Positions 4,725 through 42,815 of a stretch of 64,000 nt of DNA are shown here, piece by piece. The notes below the pieces were generated by a model. That model worked only from the letters and a program-made list of their open reading frames with translations. It made no database searches and was not told where the DNA came from. The DNA lies in assembly GCA_963782915.1 (NCBI GenBank), contig CAWALK010000023.1:64001-128000 (forward strand). Direction: 5' to 3'. Source of the stretch: an uncultured archaeon. Lineage in GTDB: Archaea; Thermoproteota; Bathyarchaeia; Bathyarchaeales; Bathycorpusculaceae. Position numbers and translations under genes: made by a program. Numbering within the stretch: position 1 is the first letter of the stretch; the number at the start of each line of letters is the position of its first letter.

Positions 4725-4868
4725 TTAGTATCTTCTTGGTGGACGTCTTTTTGCGTAGCACTCGCGGCAATATACTGGTCTTGTGCCGTCTGGTTTGAAA
4801 GGAACATCGCATTCTTTTCCACAGTCAGCGCAAGTTGCCTTGTGCATTTCTCGGTTACCGTATGACAT
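4725..4868 (-). CDS. CxxC-x17-CxxC zinc-ribbon small protein (not in ORF track)
   Basis: Translates to MSYGNREMHKATCADCGKECDVPFKPDGTRPVYCRECYAKRRPPRRY*; GGAG RBS upstream. Confidence 0.9.
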   Translation of the reverse strand: MSYGNREMHKATCADCGKECDVPFKPDGTRPVYCRECYAKRRPPRRY

Positions 4869-5173
4869 ATTTGCTGTTTCAACTCCTACTATATTCGATT
4901 GTGTGCAAAATTTACTTTTGCACGTACACCATAGTCTTATTCGCGGCTTATAAATGGCGTGCCTTATAACTCAATATTAGACATGAAAATAGCCAAACTA
5001 GCGCTAACACGCTAACCCCCGATACATTCGGACAACAAATAGTCAAACTAATATACTTAAAACACCCATATAGGTGAATAAATCGGATATACCGTCCGAA
5101 TATTGGAGAAAAAGTCAAAAAATGGCAGCCGTGGGCTTAGCTTTTTCTCGGACCCAATACAAGTGAGTGCACT

Positions 5174-5818
5174 TTGAGACAGAAAAAATCGACCTTGGGC
5201 GAACATCTCGCTCTCCTATCAGTCAAATACAGTGTCTACCCAAACGAAGTTTTCCAAGCACTAGTAATAGCCCGCAAAAACGATCGTGCCACCTGCGGTA
5301 ACCTCTCAATCGAATACCGCGGCAAACTAAAAGGCGAAACAATCTTTCTAATAACCAAAGACAACGACGTAGTTGCACAATTCCGCGTCGAAGAAGAATT
5401 TCTGCTGCGAAAAGACAACCCATTCGAAAGCTGGATGAGCACGGACAAGATTAAAAAGAAAATTGCAAAACAAAATACTGACTCCGTTTATATCCAAATT
5501 AAAGACCTCAGAGCAGGTATGAAACGGGTTAATCTTAAAGCGGAAGTTCAAGAGATCCCCAAACCAGCGCAGGTCCATACTCAATTCGGCAACACAGTGA
5601 TGGTAGTTAACGCTTTAGTCGGTGACGAAACAGGCAAAGTTAAGCTCTGCCTTTGGGAAGGGCAAATCGGCCAAATTAACGTGGGCGACCAAATTGAACT
5701 CAGGAATGGGCAAGTCTGCGTTTTCCGAGGCGAAAAACAGCTGAGACTGGGCAAGAATGGCTCGTTAACTGTGTTGAAACGGGCTGAGGTTAAACCGCAA
5801 ATCGCAACAATAGGCTAA
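5174..5818 (+). CDS. OB-fold ssDNA-binding (SSB/RPA-like) protein with extra N-terminal domain
   Basis: C-terminal IKDL..VNL....VGDETGKVKLCLW..QLRLGK matches the archaeal SSB OB fold. Confidence 0.8.
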   Translation: MRQKKSTLGEHLALLSVKYSVYPNEVFQALVIARKNDRATCGNLSIEYRGKLKGETIFLITKDNDVVAQFRVEEEFLLRKDNPFESWMSTDKIKKKIAKQNTDSVYIQIKDLRAGMKRVNLKAEVQEIPKPAQVHTQFGNTVMVVNALVGDETGKVKLCLWEGQIGQINVGDQIELRNGQVCVFRGEKQLRLGKNGSLTVLKRAEVKPQIATIG

Positions 5819-5847
5819 TCAAAATAACTATCCCTTTTACAACACAT

Positions 5848-5901
5848 TTCTTGACTAACTCTTTCAGTCTAGGTCAAGATTCCTATACAAAAAATCTTAA
5901 A
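5848..5901 (+). repeat. Junction palindrome element, copy 1 (CTTGAC...GTCAAGATTCCTATACAA)
   Basis: Matches junctions at 7397, 8408, 9265 and 11398, with a longer spacer. Confidence 0.6.
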
Positions 5902-5935
5902 TTACCCAATACTTCGCTTTTAATTAGGTGCTAAT

Positions 5936-7324
5936 ATGCGCAAGCTTGTTTATGCCTCATTTTCTGCGGTCCTACTTCTGGCGTATTTAATGTCAGTGGG
6001 TTCTGCCTCTACCGTTTTTACTCCAGTTAGCGGCTTACTCACATCTGACACAACTTGGAGTCTAGCAAACAGTCCCTACCAATTAACAGGACCAGTCGGC
6101 GTAGCCAGTGGAGTAACATTAACTATCCAGCCCGGCGTAACCGTTGATCTGGCAAGTTTAGATATTCAAATAAATGGAACCCTAATCGCCAGAGGAACCA
6201 GCGACCAAAAAATCACTTTCAATAGCAACAGCCAAGACGCCGATATCGGTATAGCGGCAAACAGCACAAGCTGGGATGAATTAACCGGCACAGGATGCAT
6301 AATTCGAAACGCCATCATCAACGCTAATTTGGGCATCGGAAAAGTAGCGCCCAAAATCGACAGCAACACCATCACTGGACACTACCTGCTAACTTCGGGG
6401 TCCCCAATCATCTCTAACAACATTATCAACGAAGAAATTCATGTTTTAGACGGAACACCCCTCATAACCGGTAACACTATAAACAGTTTTATCGTTGGGA
6501 GCTGCAAGGGGCCAGTGACAATATCAAACAACATTATTACTGGTCACTTCGGTGATGCAATTAACGGTGCAGGCATCAGTTGCAGTGCAAACAACATCAT
6601 TACAGGTAATACTATCACCCACTTCAAGAAAGGCATCGTTTTGTTCTGTGGAAACAGCACAATAGAACGAAATGTAATCGTAGACAATACCCTCGGAATA
6701 CAGTTGGGACTATCCGGCTCAGGCACCAACGGCGTCTTCCAAGTAACCATCCGAAACAACCTGATAACCGATAACTCCAAGGGAATAAGCCTCACCGACC
6801 TATCGCAGACCCTCGCTGCGGGTGGCAGCATAGCCTTCACAATAAAAAACAACAATATCCAAGGCAACCGCGACTACGACATCTACTTGGGAATCAACAC
6901 ACCGATAAATGCCTCTTATAATTGGTGGGGTACAGCTGACCAGCAAGCCATAAACCAGACAATCTACGATGTCAAAAACAACTACAATCTCGGCACTGTA
7001 ACCTTCACTCCATACTTGACTGAACTTGATCCAGTTACACCCATCTATAATGGGCAGACACAAACCACTACCCCAACCGCAAGTACAACACCGGTGCCGA
7101 TCATTACCGAAACAGAGAACCCCACTGAGCCGCCGGCCACAACAACTCAAGACCCAGCCACGACGAATCCAACCCAGCATCCGGAGCAGCAGCCAATCAC
7201 CCAAAACAATCAGCAACTCACGCTAGGCTGGTCAGAAGTTGCAGTACTCATTGTATGCGTTGTTGTTGGGACTTTAACTGTGGCGCTGATATTACTCCGC
7301 CGAAAGCACATAACACAACAATAA
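5936..7324 (+). CDS. Secreted parallel beta-helix (NosD/pectin-lyase-like) protein with C-terminal TM anchor
   Basis: Signal peptide, I..N.I repeats, NWWGT motif, Thr/Pro linker, TM followed by RRKH. Confidence 0.85.
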   Translation: MRKLVYASFSAVLLLAYLMSVGSASTVFTPVSGLLTSDTTWSLANSPYQLTGPVGVASGVTLTIQPGVTVDLASLDIQINGTLIARGTSDQKITFNSNSQDADIGIAANSTSWDELTGTGCIIRNAIINANLGIGKVAPKIDSNTITGHYLLTSGSPIISNNIINEEIHVLDGTPLITGNTINSFIVGSCKGPVTISNNIITGHFGDAINGAGISCSANNIITGNTITHFKKGIVLFCGNSTIERNVIVDNTLGIQLGLSGSGTNGVFQVTIRNNLITDNSKGISLTDLSQTLAAGGSIAFTIKNNNIQGNRDYDIYLGINTPINASYNWWGTADQQAINQTIYDVKNNYNLGTVTFTPYLTELDPVTPIYNGQTQTTTPTASTTPVPIITETENPTEPPATTTQDPATTNPTQHPEQQPITQNNQQLTLGWSEVAVLIVCVVVGTLTVALILLRRKHITQQ

Positions 7325-21772: not shown

Positions 21773-22656
21773 ATGATTACTTTGGAATTGCCGAATTGGA
21801 ATTGGCTAAAATCAACCTCACATAAGCAGTTAGAGCTCGAATTGGGTCCACTAGAGACATTCCTAAATCGATACATCGCCAATCCAGTAGACCCAACAAA
21901 GTCCAAAAAGCAAAGGATGCATTGGCAATCGTAAAAGAAGCAAAAGTCACTTTGCAGCAACGTAAAGTTCAGAATGCTTGGGCACTATACTACCAAGCGG
22001 AATTATTAGAATACGAATTAAAAACCAAAGAAGAACTTGATGCCCGCGCCGGCAAAATCCTTTTTGAAAGCGCCATTTTACTCAATGACGGGGCAAAACA
22101 GAATATTCGCAGATTAATCGGCCAAGGCTCAGATAACGGTGGCTGGGTATTACAGAAAAATGTTGCGCCATCAAATGTAATCGAAGCTAGACGAATCATT
22201 CAGGATTACTACATAAAAAAGTACACCTACTTGGACGTCGCCATGCAGATGCTCTCCATTCTAACAACTATCGTTGCAATTTTGAGTCTAATTATAGCGT
22301 TTACGCTTACTTCGGTACCAAACACAATTACATCCGCTCCGGCAAGTTCGGTGTTCTGGATCACAATCGGCTTATTTGGAGGCGTTGGAGGCTCAATAAG
22401 CGGCTTGTTCGGTTTAAAACAGTCGTTTGCTTTAGACAGCGATATGCCTGAACGGGTTTTGAACAAATGGATAACTATTGCCAAACCAATCATTGGCTTC
22501 GCAGCTGCAATCGTAATCGCGATTTTTTTGATTGCAGGCTTTGTTGAGGTTGCCAATATTGAAGTAAGCACTTATCTGATATTTTCAATGGCGTTTGTAT
22601 CAGGATTTTCAGAGCGCTTAATTATTGGCGCGGTATCTTCTAGGCTGCCTTCCTAA
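21773..22656 (+). CDS. Membrane protein with C-terminal 4-TM domain; probable frameshift near 21900
   Basis: GGVGGSIS and FVSGFSERL motifs; an upstream frame from ATG 21773 joins ORF 21922. Confidence 0.6.
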
Positions 22657-34115: not shown

Positions 34116-36585
34116 TTAGTATTCTGGTTTTATGTATACTTGAGTTTGGGCGACTTGTCTGCCCTCAGCTTTTTCAGCTATTACTTTTATGTTTTCGATT
34201 TTTAGGGTTGCTGCGATGTCGATGGTTGCTTGGCGTATTGCGACGGCGGTGGCGTCGTCTGCGGTGTAGATGGTTAAGTTTTTGATGGGTGCGTTGAGTG
34301 AGAGTTTCTTTTCTGCTTTGTCGCGGCGGATTTCGCTCATTATGGCGGTGATTAAGTCGCCGTCTTTCTCAGCTGCCTCATCAACCAGTGAGGCGTTGAA
34401 CTTTGGCCATTGCGAAACCTGTATGCTCTTGTAGCCTTTGCCATCCATGTACATGTACTGATAGATTTCTTCTGCCATGTGTGGGGTGACTGGGGCGAGG
34501 AGTTGTAGCATGCGGTAGAGTACCTCATAGAGGGTGTGTTGTGCTGCGGCGGTGTTTGCTTTGCCGTAGACTTCGGGGCGGTATAATCTGTCTTTGATGG
34601 CTTCGACGTAGAAGTCGCAGAAGACGTGCCAGGTGAAGTTGCGGATTTCCTCTACTGCGATGTTGAATTGGCATTTTTCGTAGGCTTCGGTGACTTTTTT
34701 GGTGATGTTCTCGGTTTTGCTAAGGATCCATTTGTCGAGTAGTTGGAGGTCCATTTCGTCGCTGGCTTTTGGCGTATAGTTGCCCAGCAAGTTGCTTGCG
34801 AATCCGGAGGCATTCCAGAGTTTAACCAGGAAGCGTCTGCCGTATTCGACGTCTTGGGCGCGGTAGGGTATGTCTGAACCGGTTGCTCCTCCGCCTGCTG
34901 CCCATTGGCGGACTGCGTCGGCTCCGTACTTGTTGAGTGTTTCCGGTGCGGCAGCATAGTTTTTGAGTGATTTGCTCATTTTTCTGCCATCGGCGCCTAA
35001 GACCATGCCGTTGATGAGTACGCTGTTGAAGGGGCGCTCGTCGAAGAGTGCTAGGTGGCGTACCATGAGGTAGTATGCCCATGTGCGGATGATGTCGGTT
35101 CCGGATGGGTGTATGCTTGCCGGGATACAGGCGCTTCCAGTCCGCTCGGTCTGGCCAGCCAGCGTGGACGGCGCAGGTGATTGAGCTATCCATCCAAGTA
35201 TCCATAACATCCTGTTCGCCGCGGAAGTCTATGCCGCCACATTTGGGGCACTTCTCGATTCGTGGGCCCTCAAGCTTGGGGTCAATCGGAACCCAGCCTT
35301 CCTCCGCGATTATCATTTCGCCGCAACCCTTACAGAACCACACCGGGATCGGAGTGGCGAATAAGCGTTGGCGGCTGATTACCCAGTCCCAATTCAAGCG
35401 AATGCGCCCAGTCGATCAGGCGGTTACGCATGTAATCTGGGTACCAAGGTATTGCCTTAGCGTTCTCCTCAACTTTGTCAGTTAACTCCATGTTTTTCAT
35501 GAACCACTGTTTTACTTCGAGAATTTCGACGCCGGTCTTGCAGCGGTCGCAGACGCCGACTTCCTGCTGGATTTTTTCGCTCTTCTCAAGCAACCCAGCT
35601 TCGGTGAGGTCTTTGACTATGGCGGCTCGGGCTTGGTTAATGTAGAGGCCAGCGTATTTGCAGCCTGCCTCGCTAATTTGGCCGGTCTGGGTTATGAGGC
35701 GGATGACGGGGAGTTTGTGTTTTATGACCGTTTTTACGTCTTCCTTGTCGCCGTAGGTACAGATTTGCATGGCGCCAGTGCCGAATTTGGGGTCGACGGC
35801 TTCGTCAGTTATGATTGTGACTTCGCGGTTCATGAGTGGCACATTGATTTTTCTGCCAATGTATTTGGCGTAGCGTTCGTCTTTGGGGTTTACTTCGACG
35901 GCGACGCAGGCGGGGATGAATTCGGGGCGGGAAGTCGCAATCAGCAGGTACTCTTGCTGCCTGCGAGGTGGTATTTGATGTAGTGGAGCGTGCCCTCTTT
36001 TTTGACGTGGTCAACTTCTGCGTCGGCGATGGCTGTTTCGTCGCGTGGACACCAATTAACTGGATGTGTGCCCTGATACATGAAGCCCTTCTGGTAAAGT
36101 TGGATGAAGCTGAGTTGGGTGCGACGCCAATAGTCGGGGTCCATGGTTTTGTACTCTGTAGTCCAATCGATGGAGGCGCCCATTTTGAGGATGCCTTCCT
36201 TCATCATGGCAATGTATTTCTCGACCAGTTCGATGCACCAGGCGCGGAACTGGTCTGGGGGAACATCGCGTTTGCGGATGTTTTTGGCTTTTTCAACTTG
36301 GATCTCTATGCCTAAGCCGTGGCAGTCCCAGCCCTGCGGGAAGAGCACGTTGTAGCCTTGCATGCGTTTGTAGCGGGCTACCATGTCGAAGTACGTCCAG
36401 TTTAGGACGTTGCCCATGTGGAGTTCGCCTGAAGGGTAAGGCGGAGGCGTATCGATGCTATAGGGGACGCGTGATTTGTCGTTCCAGTCGTAGTGGTATA
36501 GGGCCATTTCTTCCCATTTGGCTTGCCATTTAGCTTCGATTTCAGTGAAATTGTAATCTTTAGGCATAGGCTGCATGAACATCAA
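34116..36585 (-). CDS. valS: Valyl-tRNA synthetase, split by about 4 frameshifts
   Basis: IDTPPPYPSGELHMGN, DWVISRQR, MDTWMDSS and KMSKS spread over consecutive ORFs. Confidence 0.92.
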
Positions 36586-36753: not shown

Positions 36754-37161
36754 CTAAAAAAACTCTCTCGGAGTCAGTATGCTTGTTTTTTTGTAGCAGC
36801 CCAGTTTAAGAAGATGGTTATCTCCTGTTATAATATAGTCAGCTCCAGATGCTACAGCGCATTCTATTATCTTATCGTCTTCAGCATCTTCATCTATGAT
36901 ATGCAACTTTAACTTTGGTTTGACTATTGTTGAGTTGACTTCGATGGCGCGTAGGATTTCTTTTTGTTTTACATCCGCCTTTTGTAGGACGGTGGCGATT
37001 TTTGGGTAAAGGAGGACTTTAGAGATTTCAAGTAGGATGTCAGGACTAATGTAAATTGTTAGGTCCTGTTTTGCTTGGGAAAACTCGTCGCTTAGAACCT
37101 TTTTCATAAAGATTGAAACCCAAACGTTGGTGTCCAAGACTACTTTGACTTTCTTGCCCAC
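36754..37161 (-). CDS. PIN-domain toxin (VapC-like)
   Basis: VVLDTNV, DDKIIECA, YIITGDNHLL. Confidence 0.9.
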   Translation of the reverse strand: MGKKVKVVLDTNVWVSIFMKKVLSDEFSQAKQDLTIYISPDILLEISKVLLYPKIATVLQKADVKQKEILRAIEVNSTIVKPKLKLHIIDEDAEDDKIIECAVASGADYIITGDNHLLKLGCYKKTSILTPREFF

Positions 37162-37403
37162 TCGACTGCCTCAGCCACAATCGTATCGACATCAATAGAT
37201 TCTTCGCTGGTTGCTTTTTCAACTTTGTTGGCGATGTCCTCGATGGAGCCTTCCTTTGTTTTTCTCAGCAGTATGTCTCCATTGCGGGTAAGTACCAATA
37301 GTTTTTCGCCGCTTTTTACTCCCATTTTTTTGCGTACTTCTCTGGGAATTACCACTTGGCCCTTAGCCGAAACCTTGATTATGTCCTCAATCTGCTCTGA
37401 CAT
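37140..37403 (-). CDS. AbrB/MazE-family antitoxin
   Basis: VSAKGQVVIPREVRKKMGV; overlaps the PIN gene. Confidence 0.9.
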   Translation of the reverse strand: MSEQIEDIIKVSAKGQVVIPREVRKKMGVKSGEKLLVLTRNGDILLRKTKEGSIEDIANKVEKATSEESIDVDTIVAEAVEWARKSK

Positions 37404-37571: not shown

Positions 37572-38344
37572 TCAGCATTTCTCACATGACTGCTTAGCCG
37601 TATTCCCACAGCATCTTGGATTATCAAAATAGTCACGACCAACCCGTATGATACTCTGGTCCTGAGTCAAAAGCGCAACCTCGTTTGGCCAATAGTAAGC
37701 GTCACAAGATTCTTCATGTCCGATATGAACATCGCCAAATTGCAGTATAGAACTCTAACTTCTCCGAGGTCTTTGAGGTCTTGGCTATCTGCGATTTCAG
37801 GAGTTACTGCGATGTTGAGTTTTACGCGGTGTTTTTCTTTGGCCTCTTTTAGGGCAGGATGGATTTCTTTAACTACCTCGGGCAAGGTCATGAACATTGT
37901 AATTTCCCGCTTAGACCCTTGAATCAGGAGTTTGAGGCGGTTAACGATGCTTTTTTGCCCACGCAGAATATATGCGATTTCGAGTTCCTCAGGCTTCTCC
38001 GCACTATCATAGATGGGCGTCAATTTGCTTATGATGACATCCGCCTGCTTCATCTTCCCATCTAACTCGTCTTTTAGTTGCTGTTTGAGGTTTGTGATTG
38101 CTTCGTTTGGTGCGATGGGGCGATAAATCGATGGGGTGCTCTGCTGTATGCTTATCATGCCTTTTTTGGATAGGCTGTCGAGTGCGTAGTAGATTTTTGA
38201 GTCTGGGATTTTGGTTTGGTTGCAGAGTGCGCTTGCTGTTATGTTGGGGTGGGTTAGGAGTGTGGTGTATGTTAGGGCTTCGTGGGTTGTGAGGTTGAGT
38301 TCTTTGAGTTGGGAGATTATTTGGTTTAGGGCGGTGTCTTCCAT
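37572..38344 (-). CDS. TrmB-family transcriptional regulator with Cys-rich tail; frameshift near 37692
   Basis: LT..EA..Y..LL...TAS.L.....IP.SKIY..L..L..KG N-terminal HTH; shifted frame continues ...YFDNPRCCGNTAKQSCEKC*. Confidence 0.8.
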
Positions 38345-38403
38345 GGCGGGTTTTCTTCTTCTGGTTTCTGGTGAGTATGTGTGAGAAAACCGTTAAATAG
38401 TTT

Positions 38404-38425
38404 TCTACTACCAAAAAGTAGTAGA
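38404..38425. promoter_or_regulatory. Perfect palindrome TCTACTAC-N6-GTAGTAGA in the hgcA promoter
   Basis: Lies between a TTAAAT box (38393) and the hgcA ATG (38436). Confidence 0.65.
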
Positions 38426-38435
38426 GAATGAGAAA

Positions 38436-39482
38436 ATGAGTAAACAAACATGCGGATGCAGCACCGCCAAACCAACCACACAAACCCAAAAAACAGCAAC
38501 AAAAATACAGCCCACAACCTCCATCACGGGCAAAGTGGAACTAAAAGACCACATCCTCGCCCGCTTAGGAATCAACCGACAAAACCACACAGTAACCCCC
38601 GGATTATACTCACTGGGAAACCCCAACCCCAACACACCCGTCTTCGTAACCGCAAACTACACCCTAAGCTTCGACGCACTGCGCTCCTCGCTAAAAAACA
38701 AAGACGCCTACATCCTAGTCCTGGACACCATGGGAGTCAACGTTTGGTGTGCAGCAGGCAAAGGAACCTTCGGCACCGACGAATTATTAAGCAAAATCGA
38801 AGCCACCCATCTAGCCGATGTAGTCGCCCATCGAAAACTAGTTTTGCCCCAACTCGGCGCCTCAGGAGTCAACAGCTTCGAAGTTGAAAAGCAAAGCGGC
38901 TTCAAAGTCGAATTTGGCCCCGTACGGGCAGATGACCTTCCAGAGTACCTAAAAACTGGAAAAGCCACCGCAGAAATGCGGCAAGTAAAATACCCCCTAA
39001 AAGACCGAGCCGTGCTAATACCCGTAGAACTCAACTCGGCAATCCTTCCCCTCATTGTCTCAGTAATCGCACTGTACATTCTAGGCGGCGCCTATCCTGC
39101 AATCGCAGCTGCCACCGCAATCTTGGCGGGAACTGCCCTGTTTCCTTTAGCGTTGCCTTGGTTGCCAACTAAAGATTTCAGCTCAAAAGGTTTCATACTC
39201 GGTGGCGTCCTGTCGTTGCCTTTGGCTGCAGTGGCGTTCTTGAGTGCTCCAGCCTCGGTAATGTGGCTGCGGGTCGCGGCGGGTTTGGCTTACGTCTTGC
39301 TAATGGCACCAGTTACAGCGTACCTTGCACTAAACTTCACAGGCGCATCAACCTACACGAGTCGAACTGGTGTTAAAAAAGAAATCTTCCGCTACATCCC
39401 CGCCATGGCTGCCTCCCTGATAATCGGGACAGTTCTCGCAGGCATAGTCATTGGAATGCACTTCTTCGGAGGTGCAATATAG
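38436..39482 (+). CDS. hgcA: Mercury methylation corrinoid protein HgcA
   Basis: PVFVTANY, cap-helix NVWCAAGKG, LPQLGA, C-terminal multi-TM domain with LNFTGAS.YTS. Confidence 0.93.
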   Translation: MSKQTCGCSTAKPTTQTQKTATKIQPTTSITGKVELKDHILARLGINRQNHTVTPGLYSLGNPNPNTPVFVTANYTLSFDALRSSLKNKDAYILVLDTMGVNVWCAAGKGTFGTDELLSKIEATHLADVVAHRKLVLPQLGASGVNSFEVEKQSGFKVEFGPVRADDLPEYLKTGKATAEMRQVKYPLKDRAVLIPVELNSAILPLIVSVIALYILGGAYPAIAAATAILAGTALFPLALPWLPTKDFSSKGFILGGVLSLPLAAVAFLSAPASVMWLRVAAGLAYVLLMAPVTAYLALNFTGASTYTSRTGVKKEIFRYIPAMAASLIIGTVLAGIVIGMHFFGGAI

Positions 39483-39761
39483 ATGTTCAACTCCTACCAA
39501 GAAACCACCCTGCAATTTGACAAAGACAAATGCATCGGCTGCGGCAAATGCAGCACCGTGTGCCCACACAGAGTCTTTAGCCAAAATGGCAACAAGGCAG
39601 AACTCGTAAACCCGTCAGCATGTATGGAATGTGGCGCTTGCCAACTTAACTGCCCAGCAGGCGCAATAACCGTGGAAAGCGGCGTTGGCTGTGCTGGCGC
39701 TATGATTCGGGCGGCACTTAAGGGCGAAAAGCTTGATAGCGGCAACTGCAGTTGCGGATAA
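39483..39761 (+). CDS. hgcB: Mercury methylation ferredoxin HgcB
   Basis: CIGCGKCSTVCP, CMECGACQLNCP, GVGCA and terminal CSC; directly after hgcA. Confidence 0.93.
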   Translation: MFNSYQETTLQFDKDKCIGCGKCSTVCPHRVFSQNGNKAELVNPSACMECGACQLNCPAGAITVESGVGCAGAMIRAALKGEKLDSGNCSCG

Positions 39762-39775
39762 GGAGGACACACAGC

Positions 39776-40228
39776 ATGAACAAGCCGGAGCCAGCTTTCA
39801 AGATTCGACCAGTTAGGGCTTGATGACCTAAAAACTATCTCGCTCCCTTCTTTTGGGGTACAAGTTGCCGTTGGATGGGCTCGAAGGGACAAAGTTGTGG
39901 GTTCTTGAGTTGGGCGGTGGAGAGGTTGTGGGGGTTGCGGGTTTGGAGTTGTATGGCAATCAGGGTTTGCTGCGTTCAGTTGCAGTCGCAGATAGCATGC
40001 ACAATCGTGGCTATGGAGCAGCGTTAGCTAACTATGTGATATGTGAGGCAAGGAAGAGTCGGGTGCAAGAATTGTTTTTGCTCACAACAACAGCTCCTGA
40101 GTTTTTCAAGAAATTGGGATTCAAAGAAGAAAAACCGAGAAAAAGTGGTCGGCGGCATTGTGGACTCCGTTGAGTTCAAAAGTGCTTGCCCCAAAACCGC
40201 CATCCTCATGCGTCTACCCCTGGCTTAA
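39776..40228 (+). CDS. Arsenic-resistance GNAT acetyltransferase ArsN2-like; frameshifted
   Basis: GLELYG..GLLRSVAV, LFLLTTTA..FF..LGF, S.EFKSACP.TA.LM; GGAGG RBS. Confidence 0.75.
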
Positions 40229-40232
40229 TTAT

Positions 40233-40580
40233 CTACACCTTTTTGGTGGGGTAGGCAGCTTTGCCTATCACTTCAGATAGCTTCTCAGAGGAGGGCACAC
40301 CGCCATAGAGCACCAATTCGCCGTTGATGAATAGAGCTGGCATTGCATCCATGCCGTACTTGTCAAACAGGGGTTTGAGTTTGCTGAAGTCGCCGATTTC
40401 TTTTCCGTAACGGACCTCGGTAGCAGTCACAACTTCAACTGAAGCTTCGACGTTACTTTTGCCCAGTACTTCCTTCACTTTTGCTTTGTACTGTTCATCC
40501 ATTGGTTTAAGGGCTGGGTTGCAGCAGGAGAAAGTGAGGATTGAGATTTGCATTTTATTGGTCATAGAGGTGCTTCCCAA
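40233..40580 (-). CDS. Thioredoxin-fold ArsD-like metallochaperone
   Basis: SCCNP, MPALFINGELV..G.VPS; coupled to arsA. Confidence 0.6.
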   Translation of the reverse strand: MGSTSMTNKMQISILTFSCCNPALKPMDEQYKAKVKEVLGKSNVEASVEVVTATEVRYGKEIGDFSKLKPLFDKYGMDAMPALFINGELVLYGGVPSSEKLSEVIGKAAYPTKKV

Positions 40581-41469
40581 CCTTTCTGAGGCTTTCTATT
40601 CCATAGATATCGGTGTCAAAGAGCGGTACGTCTTTTCTTAAGATAGTTTTGAATCTGGTTTCGATTTCTTTGAAGTACTTTTCTTGTGTTGCTCTTCGTC
40701 GTTCAAGAAACCAGTTGCCCTTGAGAACCTCTGGCGGAATAACCTCGTTAACAACCAGTGACGCTACGTTTATGCCAAATTTGGATAGATCGTCGATGGC
40801 TCGTGCTGTCTCCTCAATCGGCAACTTCTCGGGTAAAAGCACGAGGTTGAAGGCGGATATGGTTTCGTCCGAGAGGCTTTTCACAGCTTGGTCGTATCGC
40901 TGTTTTTCTTTCTTCAACCCTTCCAGCGTGCTTTCATCCACGCCGCCTAATGCTTCGGCGAGCTCTTTTCTGTTCTTGATTTGGTTAGTCATGTATCCCG
41001 ACCAATCAAACGGCATCGACAGCTCCCTGAGAGTATGTCCTGTGGGCGCTGTATCGAACACTACATGGTCATATTTTTTGTCGCCAAGATATGTTACGAA
41101 TTGGTCGAATGCCGCCATTTCTTCTGCGCAAGGGGTGCTGATGGCGTCTTTGCCAAGGATTTGGTCAAAGTTTTGCATCATGCCTTGGAGTCGGGTTTGG
41201 AAGATGCCTGTTGCTTTTTTGGGGTTGATGTTTAACCCGCAGAGGTTTTGGATCTTGTCTATTTTTGTGATTTCGGTTTCTCCTATTTTTTGTTCATAGG
41301 TTGCTGAGAGGCTCACTGTTGGGTCGGTTGCGACGATTAGGGTGTCGTAGCCTTGGTCGGCTAGCCAGACGGCTGTTGAGGCTGCCATGGTTGTTTTTCC
41401 TACGCCTCCTTTGCCGCCGAAGAAGAGAAATTTTCGGTTTTCTATGAGTTTTTTCATTTCTTGTGTCAT
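40555..41469 (-). CDS. arsA: ArsA/GET3-family ATPase (single domain)
   Basis: GGKGGVGKTT, TDP, TPCAEE, FDTAPTGHTLR. Confidence 0.8.
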   Translation of the reverse strand: MTQEMKKLIENRKFLFFGGKGGVGKTTMAASTAVWLADQGYDTLIVATDPTVSLSATYEQKIGETEITKIDKIQNLCGLNINPKKATGIFQTRLQGMMQNFDQILGKDAISTPCAEEMAAFDQFVTYLGDKKYDHVVFDTAPTGHTLRELSMPFDWSGYMTNQIKNRKELAEALGGVDESTLEGLKKEKQRYDQAVKSLSDETISAFNLVLLPEKLPIEETARAIDDLSKFGINVASLVVNEVIPPEVLKGNWFLERRRATQEKYFKEIETRFKTILRKDVPLFDTDIYGIESLRKVGKHLYDQ

Positions 41470-41534
41470 ATATCGGTCACACCAATATCGGATAAACCGA
41501 TATGCTTATAAGATTTCGTGTCGGTATCCGATAG
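41470..41534. promoter_or_regulatory. Tandem palindromes ATATCGG-N5-CC(G/A)ATAT, candidate operator
   Basis: Copies at 41470-41488 and 41485-41503, variant at 41518-41534, in the divergent arsA/regulator intergenic region. Confidence 0.65.
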
Positions 41535-41545
41535 TGGTCAACACC

Positions 41546-42289
41546 ATGCAATCGCCCTCATCCGAAATCGCAGGCAACCTGCAAGCCAAAATAATGATGT
41601 TACTGCGAGAAGAGCAACTCTGCGGCGTAGACCTAATGAAGCGGTTAAAAATCAAAAGCCCCGGCACAATCTACCCTGTACTCGAGGCACTTAGAACAAA
41701 AGGCTTAATCGACTTCAAAATTGAAACCTCAGGCGCAGTCCGTAAAAAAGTCTATTCTCTGACAGAGACTGGCACCCAAAAGATGCAAGACCATCTGACC
41801 AGTTCAATGAAATTTTGCTGCGACACCTCCGAGCATATCAACCGAATCCTCGGTATTGTGAAGGAACTTATAGAGATCAAACGCAAAGAAAAAGTACTCT
41901 CAACCTTAGACCATGACGAGTTGAAACGTTACCTCAAAGCAGCGGACGTAACCTATTCAAGTGATCTGCAGGTTCCGGCTGGAACATTCGATAAGGCGTT
42001 GAGCTTTTTGGGCGTTGGCTGCTTAATCGGCAACGAAACCTCAGACATCGCCAACTATGTAAAACAGCTCTACCTAAGCTTGAAGAGAGGCGGGGTTTTG
42101 TTGGCGATTGAAACCCAGAAAACAGATAACATGTTTAGCCAAATCCTCTTCGAAGACGTTTTTGGATTAAAAGAGCCACCTGGATTACCCCTTGACGAGT
42201 TAAGGGCTGTTTTGGAGAAAGCGGGGTTCACCAATGTATCGGTTACGGCGAATATGGGTCTGCTCTTTGCTGTAGCACAAAAACCTTAA
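41546..42289 (+). CDS. PadR-type wHTH regulator fused to a methyltransferase-like domain
   Basis: SPGTIYPVL..L...GLI, KKVYSLTETG, CC pair, FDKALS, LKRGGVLL, LEKAGF. Confidence 0.7.
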   Translation: MQSPSSEIAGNLQAKIMMLLREEQLCGVDLMKRLKIKSPGTIYPVLEALRTKGLIDFKIETSGAVRKKVYSLTETGTQKMQDHLTSSMKFCCDTSEHINRILGIVKELIEIKRKEKVLSTLDHDELKRYLKAADVTYSSDLQVPAGTFDKALSFLGVGCLIGNETSDIANYVKQLYLSLKRGGVLLAIETQKTDNMFSQILFEDVFGLKEPPGLPLDELRAVLEKAGFTNVSVTANMGLLFAVAQKP

Positions 42290-42377: not shown

Positions 42378-42815
42378 CTAATGGGTTAGGTCTTTTTTTA
42401 CTTCTGAGAGCGTATATTTTTCTTCTTCCCTACCAGTGTAGGGAGCTTCTTCCATGTCACCAAGGAATGTATGGATAACAGCGAGCAATTCATCCATCTT
42501 AACTGGTTTCAAAATGAAAGCTTCTGCGCCGTAATCGCGTGCTTTAGCTCCGGCTTCCGCGGATGGGTAACCGGTTATTATGAATTTGATTGTCTGCTGC
42601 AATTCATTCTTAGCTTTAGAAAGCAGGTCGGTTCCTTTCATGTCCGGGAGAATAACATCGATTATGGCGAGGTCATAGTGGCTGCCCTTTAGTTTATCAA
42701 GGGCTTCCTTAGCGGTTTCTGCGGTGTCGGTTGCGTACCCGTTTTTTTCTAGGACACGGCTTAATGATCGGAGTATGGATTGGTCGTCATCCACAATAAG
42801 GATTGTTTTTTTCAA
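42378..42815 (-). CDS. Response regulator receiver protein
   Basis: ILIVDDD, IIDVILPDMKG, ITG, ILKP. Confidence 0.92.
   Translation of the reverse strand: MKKTILIVDDDQSILRSLSRVLEKNGYATDTAETAKEALDKLKGSHYDLAIIDVILPDMKGTDLLSKAKNELQQTIKFIITGYPSAEAGAKARDYGAEAFILKPVKMDELLAVIHTFLGDMEEAPYTGREEEKYTLSEVKKDLTH

Follow-up and report, generated by a model that had tools for sequence, protein, structure and literature searches.

A regulator of the TrmB family that faces the mercury methylation genes hgcA and hgcB in a bathyarchaeon belongs to a subfamily of archaeal proteins with three near-invariant cysteines and a conserved, predicted operator, and the commonest partner of this subfamily is the arsenite methyltransferase gene arsM. 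The locus lies in a stretch of 64,000 nucleotides (here called the window; positions 64,001 to 128,000 of contig CAWALK010000023.1, assembly GCA_963782915.1), whose nearest relatives are metagenome-assembled genomes (MAGs) of Bathyarchaeia, as a preliminary description made from the sequence had proposed. We think it rather probable, though with considerable room for error, that the protein is a TrmBL2-like repressor that would take up an As(III)-type ligand through its three cysteines and that was recruited from arsM to hgcAB. The gene identities, the synteny, the conservation of the operator and of the cysteines, and the fold are established here. The features of the locus, in window coordinates, are as follows.

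37572-38344, minus strand: TrmB-family (TrmBL2-like) regulator gene, made up of the open reading frame (ORF) at 37667-38344 and, past the frameshift, an open tail frame at 37572-37730
37575-37586, minus strand: terminal C-x2-C of the regulator tail, clade-specific
37608-37613, minus strand: codons of the vicinal cysteine pair CC (245-246 in the numbering of the intact protein), read in the frame that follows the shift
37742-37744, minus strand: codon of Cys201, with coordinates derived from the ORF start
38393-38399, no strand assigned: TATA-like box TTAAATA, with A-rich stretches resembling a B recognition element (BRE) on either side
38404-38425, no strand assigned: operator palindrome, TCTACTAC (38404-38411), CAAAAA, GTAGTAGA (38418-38425), perfect 8+6+8
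38405-38424, no strand assigned: operator core CTACTA-N8-TAGTAG, 20 bp
38436-39482, plus strand: hgcA, 348 amino acids, corrinoid protein of mercury methylation, NCBIfam NF040863
39483-39761, plus strand: hgcB, 92 amino acids, ferredoxin partner, NCBIfam NF040864

By their sequences, HgcA and HgcB are true equivalogs and not CdhD-like paralogs. Two features define HgcA proteins, a membrane domain at the C terminus and the cap-helix motif N(V/I)WCA(A/G)GK. The protein in the window has NVWCAAGK from residue 102, and its hydrophobic segments span approximately residues 192-348, the C-terminal half, consistent with such a membrane domain and with what had first been read from the sequence. It scored 413.1 bits on the equivalog model NF040863 (cutoff, 275), and fell below the cutoffs of the model for HgcAB-like fusions (202.5 bits; cutoff, 285) and of the acetyl-CoA decarbonylase (ACDS) gamma model (80.3 bits; cutoff, 306), which is of the CdhD/AcsC type. 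HgcB passed its equivalog model NF040864 with 117 bits (cutoff, 99) and shows all the features ascribed to it, namely, two CX2CX2CX3C motifs, GVGCA, and terminal cysteines in the C-terminal ...NCSCG. We regard hgcAB as genuine because the NCBI equivalog cutoffs were passed and because HgcA has both the motif and the hydrophobic C-terminal half; a CdhD-like paralog of the same genome is on a separate contig (C12). Methylation of Hg(II) by HgcAB is the function predicted from these genes.

The regulator gene is divergent from hgcA, and the gap between its ORF and hgcA (38345-38435) is 91 bp. The ORF matches the TrmB-type winged helix-turn-helix (HTH) family PF01978 with 62.3 bits (cutoff, 25.6), and P0002, an intact homolog of 257 amino acids that is 99% identical to it, matches with 59.2 bits, in agreement with the family and the distance of about 90 bp first noted. 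On the profile of the C-terminal TrmB domain, PF11495, P0002 scored 24.5 bits (cutoff, 22.2), with only profile positions 4-125 of 233 matched, and the frameshift-truncated ORF of the window, at 21 bits, fell below the same cutoff. A profile of the regulator matched TrmBL2 in the PDB over almost the full length (E value, 1.7e-27). An AlphaFold2 model of P0002, built from 72 aligned sequences, had a mean predicted local distance difference test (pLDDT) score of 91.3, with 55 for the last block of the tail, and in a Foldseek search with this model TrmBL2 chains took ranks 1-8 (E values of 2e-15 to 1e-13), followed at rank 9 by TrmB 3qph (E value, 2.4e-9). The TM scores in this search were only about 0.4, as is expected for a multidomain protein with a flexible arrangement. 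The equivalog models for the sugar-sensing TrmB and TrmBL1 proteins failed by a wide distance (NF040851, 42.8 bits against a cutoff of 600; NF047390, 66.5 against 650; NF047392, 55 against 500), and so did the TrmBL2 equivalog NF041141 (44.8 bits; cutoff, 530). As judged by profiles and the model, the regulator is a short TrmB-family, TrmBL2-like protein without the sugar-binding subdomain. The idea of a repurposed sugar sensor, which the preliminary description had put forward, did not hold up: the protein is of the TrmBL2-like short form, the sugar equivalogs failed, and the cysteine-bearing subfamily to which it belongs was already in place.

The regulator ORF in the window encodes 225 amino acids, compared to 257 in intact homologs, and the difference is due to a frameshift. 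The tail frame 37572-37730 on the minus strand is open and terminates in ...DYFDNPRCCGNTAKQSCEKC*, the C terminus that had been read past the frameshift and that the ORF list had missed; it differs from P0002 at one position across the 39 residues past the break. At the break itself, P0002 has TLTMWPNEV where the window has TLTIGQ. A 5,053-nucleotide contig from the unrelated sequencing run X2, with a trmB-hgcA-hgcB arrangement that is about 92% identical, has one extra base behind 37691, and we therefore conclude that the window lacks one base there, almost exactly where the single frameshift, near 37692, had been placed. This relative is the only source in which contigs derived from reads cover the site: none of the sequencing runs examined contained more than 0.20 of the sampled words of the source sequence, and two 100%-identical contigs of run X1 end at 37590, short of the frameshift. 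The frameshift is probably an assembly indel, since neighboring genes are broken as well. A gene for a class I aminoacyl-tRNA synthetase (34116-36585, minus strand), of which the genome has no other close copy, is divided among four ORFs; three of these match successive parts of PF00133 and the anticodon domain, and the second has no family match. An ArsN2-like gene past hgcB requires at least three frame changes, one of them in a run of A, to match its intact ortholog in genome G188. At another hgcAB locus (L063, a Bathyarchaeota MAG; 4840-6640), frame changes have left hgcA in four pieces and the regulator gene in two. A 220-nucleotide contig from RNA library X11 maps to 38133-38349 with 3 differences; it was not counted as expression because such libraries can contain DNA.

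The operator is conserved well beyond this locus. The palindrome TCTACTAC-N6-GTAGTAGA sits, as had been claimed, between the TATA-like box (38393-38399) and the hgcA ATG (38436). Perfect palindromes with 8-nucleotide arms and spacers of 0-10 are as frequent in shuffled sequence (6-18 in five shuffles) as in the window, which has 12, and the significance of this one lies in its position and its conservation across genomes and not in the perfection of its arms; that conservation is also why we rejected the palindrome as a chance feature. With upstream regions oriented on the regulator gene, the core CTACTA-N8-TAGTAG was perfect in 53 of 89 distinct regions and had a single mismatch in another 25, i.e., it was present in 78 of 89 at no more than one mismatch, compared to 1 of 1,780 shuffled regions. 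Conservation of the palindrome, one of the checks suggested at the outset, is thus found across the family. A looser pattern, CTACT-N10-AGTAG, gave 64 matches at -130 to -60 of the regulator start and 1 elsewhere in the 80 loci (780,176 nucleotides) kept from a scan of one genome per species that returned 93 regulator relatives. The arms are unchanged down to 26% identity of the regulator protein, while the spacer and flanks vary; in G188 and G013, for example, the corresponding intergenic regions have arms identical to those of the window and different spacers. The recognition-helix residues I46, P47, S49, K50, I51, and Y52 do not vary among 72 sequences. We conclude from this conservation that the palindrome is the predicted family-wide operator of the regulator subfamily.

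Within the window, the exact pattern has a single match (0.04 expected), and the weaker operators looked for there, two matches with 2 mismatches at 21990 and 33846, are at chance level (1.21 expected). In the genome to which the window belongs, the exact pattern occurs at hgcA and at only one other place, and the reversed pattern used as a control occurs just as often. The TATA box stands 4 nucleotides past the operator in the loci of Bathyarchaeia and Asgard archaea, as it does in the window, and the TATA-like box is probably common to both divergent promoters. The single match of the looser pattern outside the regulator-upstream zone is a second operator copy in G013 (L156 = G013:C24, 13931-13950; 3009-3028 in locus L062), located 19 nucleotides before a nitroreductase gene in the hgcAB island. 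A shorter, palindrome-like site, CTACT-N7-AGTAG, was seen at about -41 from the regulator start, between the TATA box and the start, in many arsM-linked loci of Bathyarchaeia (L066, L070, L072-L074, L080-L082, L101, and others), and the window has, by eye, a degenerate remnant of it at that position.

The second mark of the subfamily is its cysteines. In a family alignment of 68 sequences, Cys201 is present in 66 and Cys245 and Cys246 are present in 63 each, and two of the sequences without the CC pair carry C-x-C some residues further on. The pair is found in 35 of 36 close homologs (at least 71% identity). Among full-length representatives of 50%-identity clusters, a C-terminal CC or CxC occurs in 18 of 30 from the top 51 matches, a count made with a strict pattern that has a few misses, and in 0 of 83 at ranks 52-150. 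In the sequences compared, the three near-invariant cysteines, Cys201 and the CC pair, mark the subfamily off from other TrmB proteins. The cysteine tail emphasized in the preliminary description is thus general as far as the CC pair is concerned, but the terminal C-x2-C is not: among the same 36 homologs, only 20 have it, 9 have one extra cysteine, 6 have none, and 1 is truncated, and it is absent from the arsM-linked members of the family.

A word-based protein search returned 443 regulator relatives among 781 candidates, and a hidden Markov model search, run against 1.84 billion cluster representatives, found 10,422 matches at an E value of ≤0.001 and 51 at ≤1e-30; the difference between these two numbers indicates that the subfamily is small and distinct inside the TrmB family. 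Its hosts, as named in the sequence records, are Bathyarchaeia, Asgard archaea (Atabeyarchaeum, Hodarchaeota, and Thorarchaeota), Thermoplasmata including Methanomassiliicoccales, and Thaumarchaeota/Nitrososphaerota. A member at an E value of ≤1e-30 was found in 24 of 401 sampled genomes of the class to which the window belongs, and a metagenome scan with a single-protein query gave 3 loci. Three short contigs with the regulator are filed under bacterial MAGs (L082, L086, and P0029, of 2.8-7 kb, filed as Acidoferrum, Sulfotelmatobacter, and a cyanobacterium), which is likely to reflect misbinning. The finding is in these respects broader than what was first noted, since a conserved operator and a cysteine-bearing subfamily are, on the sequence evidence, spread across archaea.

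The genes next to the regulator point to arsenic. A cluster of 41 ArsM ORFs, in 41 of the 80 regulator loci, makes arsM the commonest partner; the cluster representative (L072:4686-5516) scored 360 bits on NF008823 (cutoff, 263), the scan having been made on the representative only and the other 40 ORFs having been joined to it by BLASTP clustering. In 34 of the 69 loci that could be evaluated, arsM is in the gene chain divergent from the regulator. A 98-amino-acid AhpD/CMD-like CxxC protein is present in 23 loci, in many of them between the operator and arsM, and it matches NF041537, an NCBIfam model in which an AhpD-like domain is fused to ArsM. Other partners include nitroreductases (10 ORFs in 9 loci), whose gene is a divergent partner of the regulator in other Bathyarchaeia, and flavin reductases. 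In G013, arsM and a flavin reductase gene were seen about 2 kb past the regulator gene.

Regulators that face hgcAB are confined to a close clade with TrmB identities of about 79% or more. They were found in the window, in G188, in G013 (the same locus as L062), in L063, on the metagenome contig L152, and on the 92%-identical contig from run X2, and no hgcA was found within the flanks covered at the other 78 genome loci. The linked occurrence of TrmB, hgcAB, and palindrome that the preliminary description asked after was thus borne out in all of these relatives, though not beyond the clade. Ten TrmB/HgcA pairs from two protein searches apparently come from the same assemblies, G188 being one of them. 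In a tree of 67 regulators, obtained by a quick search and with the root not inferred, the four regulators that face hgcAB group together in a single clade (SH-aLRT, 100). Its sister is an AhpD/arsM-facing clade, it falls inside a larger arsM-facing group, and the hgcA label requires one change of partner. These relationships suggest that, most likely, the regulator passed from arsM to hgcAB within a single clade of the genus to which the window belongs.

The surroundings of hgcAB are also shared by the close relatives. Downstream of hgcB the window has the following genes.

39778-40173, plus strand: ArsN2-like GNAT acetyltransferase gene, downstream of hgcB and broken by at least three frame changes
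40233-40580, minus strand: thioredoxin-like gene (Pfam Thioredoxin_3, 35.1 bits)
40555-41469, minus strand: single-domain ArsA/GET3-family ATPase gene (Pfam ArsA_ATPase, 260.6 bits; TIGR00345, 250.4 bits, cutoff 135)
41387-42289, plus strand: PadR-like HTH protein gene (Pfam PadR, 40.8 bits), the end of the conserved island

This island around hgcAB is conserved in G188 and G013. The ArsN2-like ORF of 106 amino acids reaches 89.9 bits on NF040501, below the cutoff of 125; the gene is intact in G188 and is kept in L152 as well. The order of the thioredoxin-like and ArsA-family genes is the same in G188 and G013, and both genomes keep the PadR-like gene, for whose C-terminal half no family match was found. 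We considered this gene as a methyltransferase fusion and rejected the idea, as only the PadR part matches a family and an ArsM-family scan of the genome gave no match there. After the island, a 145-amino-acid ORF (42378-42815, minus strand) resembles, by eye, the receiver domain of a response regulator. Just beyond the regulator on the other side are a PIN-domain gene (36754-37161, minus strand) and an AbrB/MazE-type antitoxin gene (37140-37403, minus strand), which look like an ordinary VapBC-type module; the AbrB/MazE member of the pair does not lie immediately before hgcA.

Of the 401 genomes sampled in the class, 8 have a full-length HgcA, and in the genus the figure is 3 of 41, including the genome of the window. 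Bathyarchaeal proteins are already annotated as HgcA in NCBI records, which qualifies the suggestion that the lineage is not usually listed among methylators. Three kinds of neighbor were seen beside hgcA in Bathyarchaeia: the TrmB type described here (3 genomes), an arsR-arsM-hgcA arrangement, and an AbrB/SpoVT-like ORF. The second kind is seen in G378 (L034 = G378:C117, 252-2460), where an ArsR-like gene (109 amino acids, with a CCC stretch), arsM, and hgcA are consecutive on one strand, and where the gene of the TrmB subfamily is on a different contig from hgcA. In G335 and G143, which belong to another family, a 95-amino-acid AbrB/SpoVT-like ORF (L035, 2469-2756, minus strand; L036, 1181-1468, plus strand) lies immediately upstream of hgcA on the same strand.

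The mechanism that we propose would work as follows. A dimer of the regulator would occupy the 20-bp operator CTACTA-N8-TAGTAG, which would lie across the DNA between the TATA box and the point where hgcA transcription is expected to begin (approximately 38420-38425, giving a leader of about 10-15 nucleotides), and the bound protein would block the recruitment of RNA polymerase to hgcAB. The regulator would control its own gene as well, since the operator adjoins the promoter of that gene on the BRE side, and this promoter would use the same roughly symmetric TATA region. Cys201 and the C-terminal CC pair would take up a thiophilic metalloid, with As(III) or methylated As(III) as the likeliest ligand, and binding of the metalloid would free the regulator from DNA. 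In one clade of the genus, hgcAB would have replaced arsM behind the same operator. DNA binding, repression, dimer formation, and the effector are here deduced from the anatomy of the locus, from conservation, and from the known TrmB and ArsR-type sensors. As(III) sites of ArsR proteins usually consist of a vicinal cysteine pair and a third cysteine. Arsenic appears to be the better-supported effector since the preexisting cysteine-bearing subfamily is mostly linked to arsM, and the ArsN2-like, ArsA-family, and thioredoxin-like genes in the hgcAB island point the same way. The preliminary description had named mercury and arsenic together as possible effectors; arsenic is favored by the linkage to arsM, and no result of the analysis supports mercury.

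Several observations weigh against this proposal. About half of the family loci show no arsM in the flanks covered, and the nitroreductase, flavin reductase, and AhpD-like partners would also fit a sensor of redox changes or electrophiles. The arsM gene of the organism itself, on contig C1, has no operator within 1.5 kb, and hgcA lacks this regulator as its neighbor in 5 of the 8 genomes of the class sample that encode HgcA. The regulator gene in the window is frameshifted, and if the frameshift were real the organism would lack the C-terminal cysteines. That one TATA box serves both directions is something that we infer. The mechanism as a whole is a prediction from sequence, and so is the repression of hgcAB claimed in the preliminary description; a site between the TATA box and the ATG fits repression by TrmB proteins as reported in the part of PMC4158304 drawn on here.

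The redox-type partners raise the possibility of a thiol-disulfide switch, in which oxidation of Cys201 and the CC pair by an oxidant or electrophile would release the operator and in which a redox stress regulon would comprise hgcAB, arsM, and the genes for the AhpD-like protein and the nitroreductase. The many loci without arsM in the flanks covered and the second operator before the nitroreductase gene of G013 would agree with this, but arsM is still the commonest partner, the AhpD-like domain fused to ArsM in NF041537 fits a helper of ArsM, the hgcAB island includes ArsN2-like and ArsA-family genes, and a vicinal pair with a third cysteine is what As(III) sites of ArsR proteins usually contain; we consider such a switch unlikely. 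It is improbable, in our view, that the regulators of the hgcAB-facing clade now respond to Hg(II) or methylmercury instead, with the C-x2-C aiding the binding, to give a mercury-responsive switch of methylation. The extra C-x2-C is indeed found in the close clade only, with a further nine homologs having one extra cysteine, and is missing from arsM-linked members, but among the six close homologs without any extra cysteine are P0020, P0025, and P0028, which apparently share an assembly with an HgcA, and the end of the tail is predicted by the model to be disordered.

Two further readings concern the operator and the ligand. The operator might serve the control of the regulator alone, or the regulator might be dead in this organism, and hgcAB would then be constitutive. 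The frameshifted copy, the occurrence of the operator with the regulator gene whatever the neighbor, and the loci that have no close divergent gene are in line with this, but the operator occupies a fixed place, with a TATA-like box on one side and the start of the divergent gene on the other, G188, G013, and L152 have intact orthologs, the open tail frame nearly matches that of P0002, and the broken neighbors, including the sole copy of a class I aminoacyl-tRNA synthetase gene, indicate assembly indels; we regard this reading as very improbable. The least probable of those considered is that the phospholipase D (PLD)-like C-terminal domain binds a ligand of methyl transfer, S-adenosylhomocysteine (SAH) or S-adenosylmethionine (SAM), and that the cysteines are structural. 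ArsM and HgcA are both methyl transfer proteins, the domain is modeled as a well-folded PLD-like module, and both arsenic and SAH elicit a response from the ArsR-like regulator of Pseudodesulfovibrio mercurii ND132, according to the portion of bioRxiv 10.1101/2022.10.17.512643 used here; against this, the cysteines are precisely what separates the subfamily from other TrmB proteins. An arsenic-responsive repressor that was handed over from arsM to hgcAB is the reading that we prefer.

Taken together, the observation made in the preliminary description is confirmed, and its interpretation is partly supported. As an interpretation it is weaker than first put: the evidence in the sequences suggests arsenic and not mercury, the C-x2-C is not general, and the frameshift is probably an artifact. 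A wider reading, which we offer as possible but doubtful, is that there is a group of archaeal thiol-based metalloid sensors with the TrmBL2 fold, using one operator from Thermoplasmata to Asgard archaea and Bathyarchaea, and that hgcAB came under regulators of the arsenic type separately in Bacteria (ArsR) and in Archaea (the TrmB type, and ArsR in G378).

The locus bears on how hgcAB expression is controlled and on what purpose HgcAB serves. The sole tested hgcAB regulator is the bacterial ArsR-like protein of ND132, which controls hgcAB and is arsenic responsive, as far as the part consulted of bioRxiv 10.1101/2022.10.17.512643 describes it. For archaea, the only candidate that we found in print is an AbrB/MazE/PrlF-like gene, proposed from synteny directly upstream of hgcA in the sections drawn on of Zhang et al. 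2023 (PMC10349881), whose main text does not mention "Bathyarch," its supplementary tables being outside that check. No publication linking hgcA and TrmB was found in a search outside which lay the supplementary tables of hgcAB surveys, which may list such contigs, and no literature link of TrmB with arsM, arsenite methyltransferase, or arsenite was found, judged by titles and abstracts. In the literature searched, hgcA is mentioned along with Bathyarchaeia in one paper and along with Bathyarchaeota in four, and one of these papers makes no connection between the two. The locus described here would add a second, unrelated regulator family, with a sharp predicted operator, a candidate three-cysteine site, and a record of the change from arsM to hgcAB. 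The TrmB family would gain a likely non-sugar, metalloid-sensing branch in at least four archaeal lineages, and Bathyarchaeia of one genus from peat, soil, and wetland carry complete hgcAB. If the wider, doubtful reading is true, the native, selected role of HgcAB would be in arsenic or metalloid metabolism, and exposure to arsenic, not mercury, would set the methylmercury potential of peat and wetland Bathyarchaeia.

Among known systems, TrmBL2 of Pyrococcus furiosus and Thermococcus kodakarensis (5bpd, 5box, and 5bqt) is the best match to the regulator in both sequence and fold. It is of similar length (264 amino acids, compared to 257) and has the winged HTH, the long helix, and the PLD-like C-terminal domain without a sugar-binding subdomain. 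However, it has no cysteine in the Cys201 column of the HMMER alignment, unlike the subfamily described here with its three conserved cysteines, and it binds DNA widely in a chromatin-like manner (in the excerpted part of PMC4158304), in contrast to the strictly conserved predicted operator of this subfamily. The sugar-sensing TrmB, TrmBL1, and VNG1451C share the PF01978 HTH and have palindromes of TACT half-sites (TACT-N3-AGTA and TACT-N7-8-GAGTA), the TACT half-site being reported for the TrmB proteins of P. furiosus, T. litoralis, and H. salinarum, and in characterized TrmB proteins sites downstream of the BRE/TATA accompany repression (all in the same part of PMC4158304). The regulator described here differs from them in having no sugar-binding subdomain and in having arsM or hgcAB, and not sugar genes, as partners. 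The AbrB candidate, described for Methanomicrobia in the portion of PMC10349881 cited above, corresponds to the AbrB-like ORF of G335 and G143 and differs from the TrmB regulator in both family and orientation. In its proposed logic the regulator resembles the ArsR-type regulators, including that of ND132, which are likewise found beside ars genes and in some lineages beside hgcAB, with a cysteine-based metalloid sensor proposed in both cases. The ArsR/SmtB fold and family are unrelated to those of TrmB; the ND132 regulator gene is cotranscribed with hgcAB, whereas the bathyarchaeal one is divergent. By analogy, this locus would represent convergence, in archaea, on the link between ArsR and hgcAB seen in bacteria.

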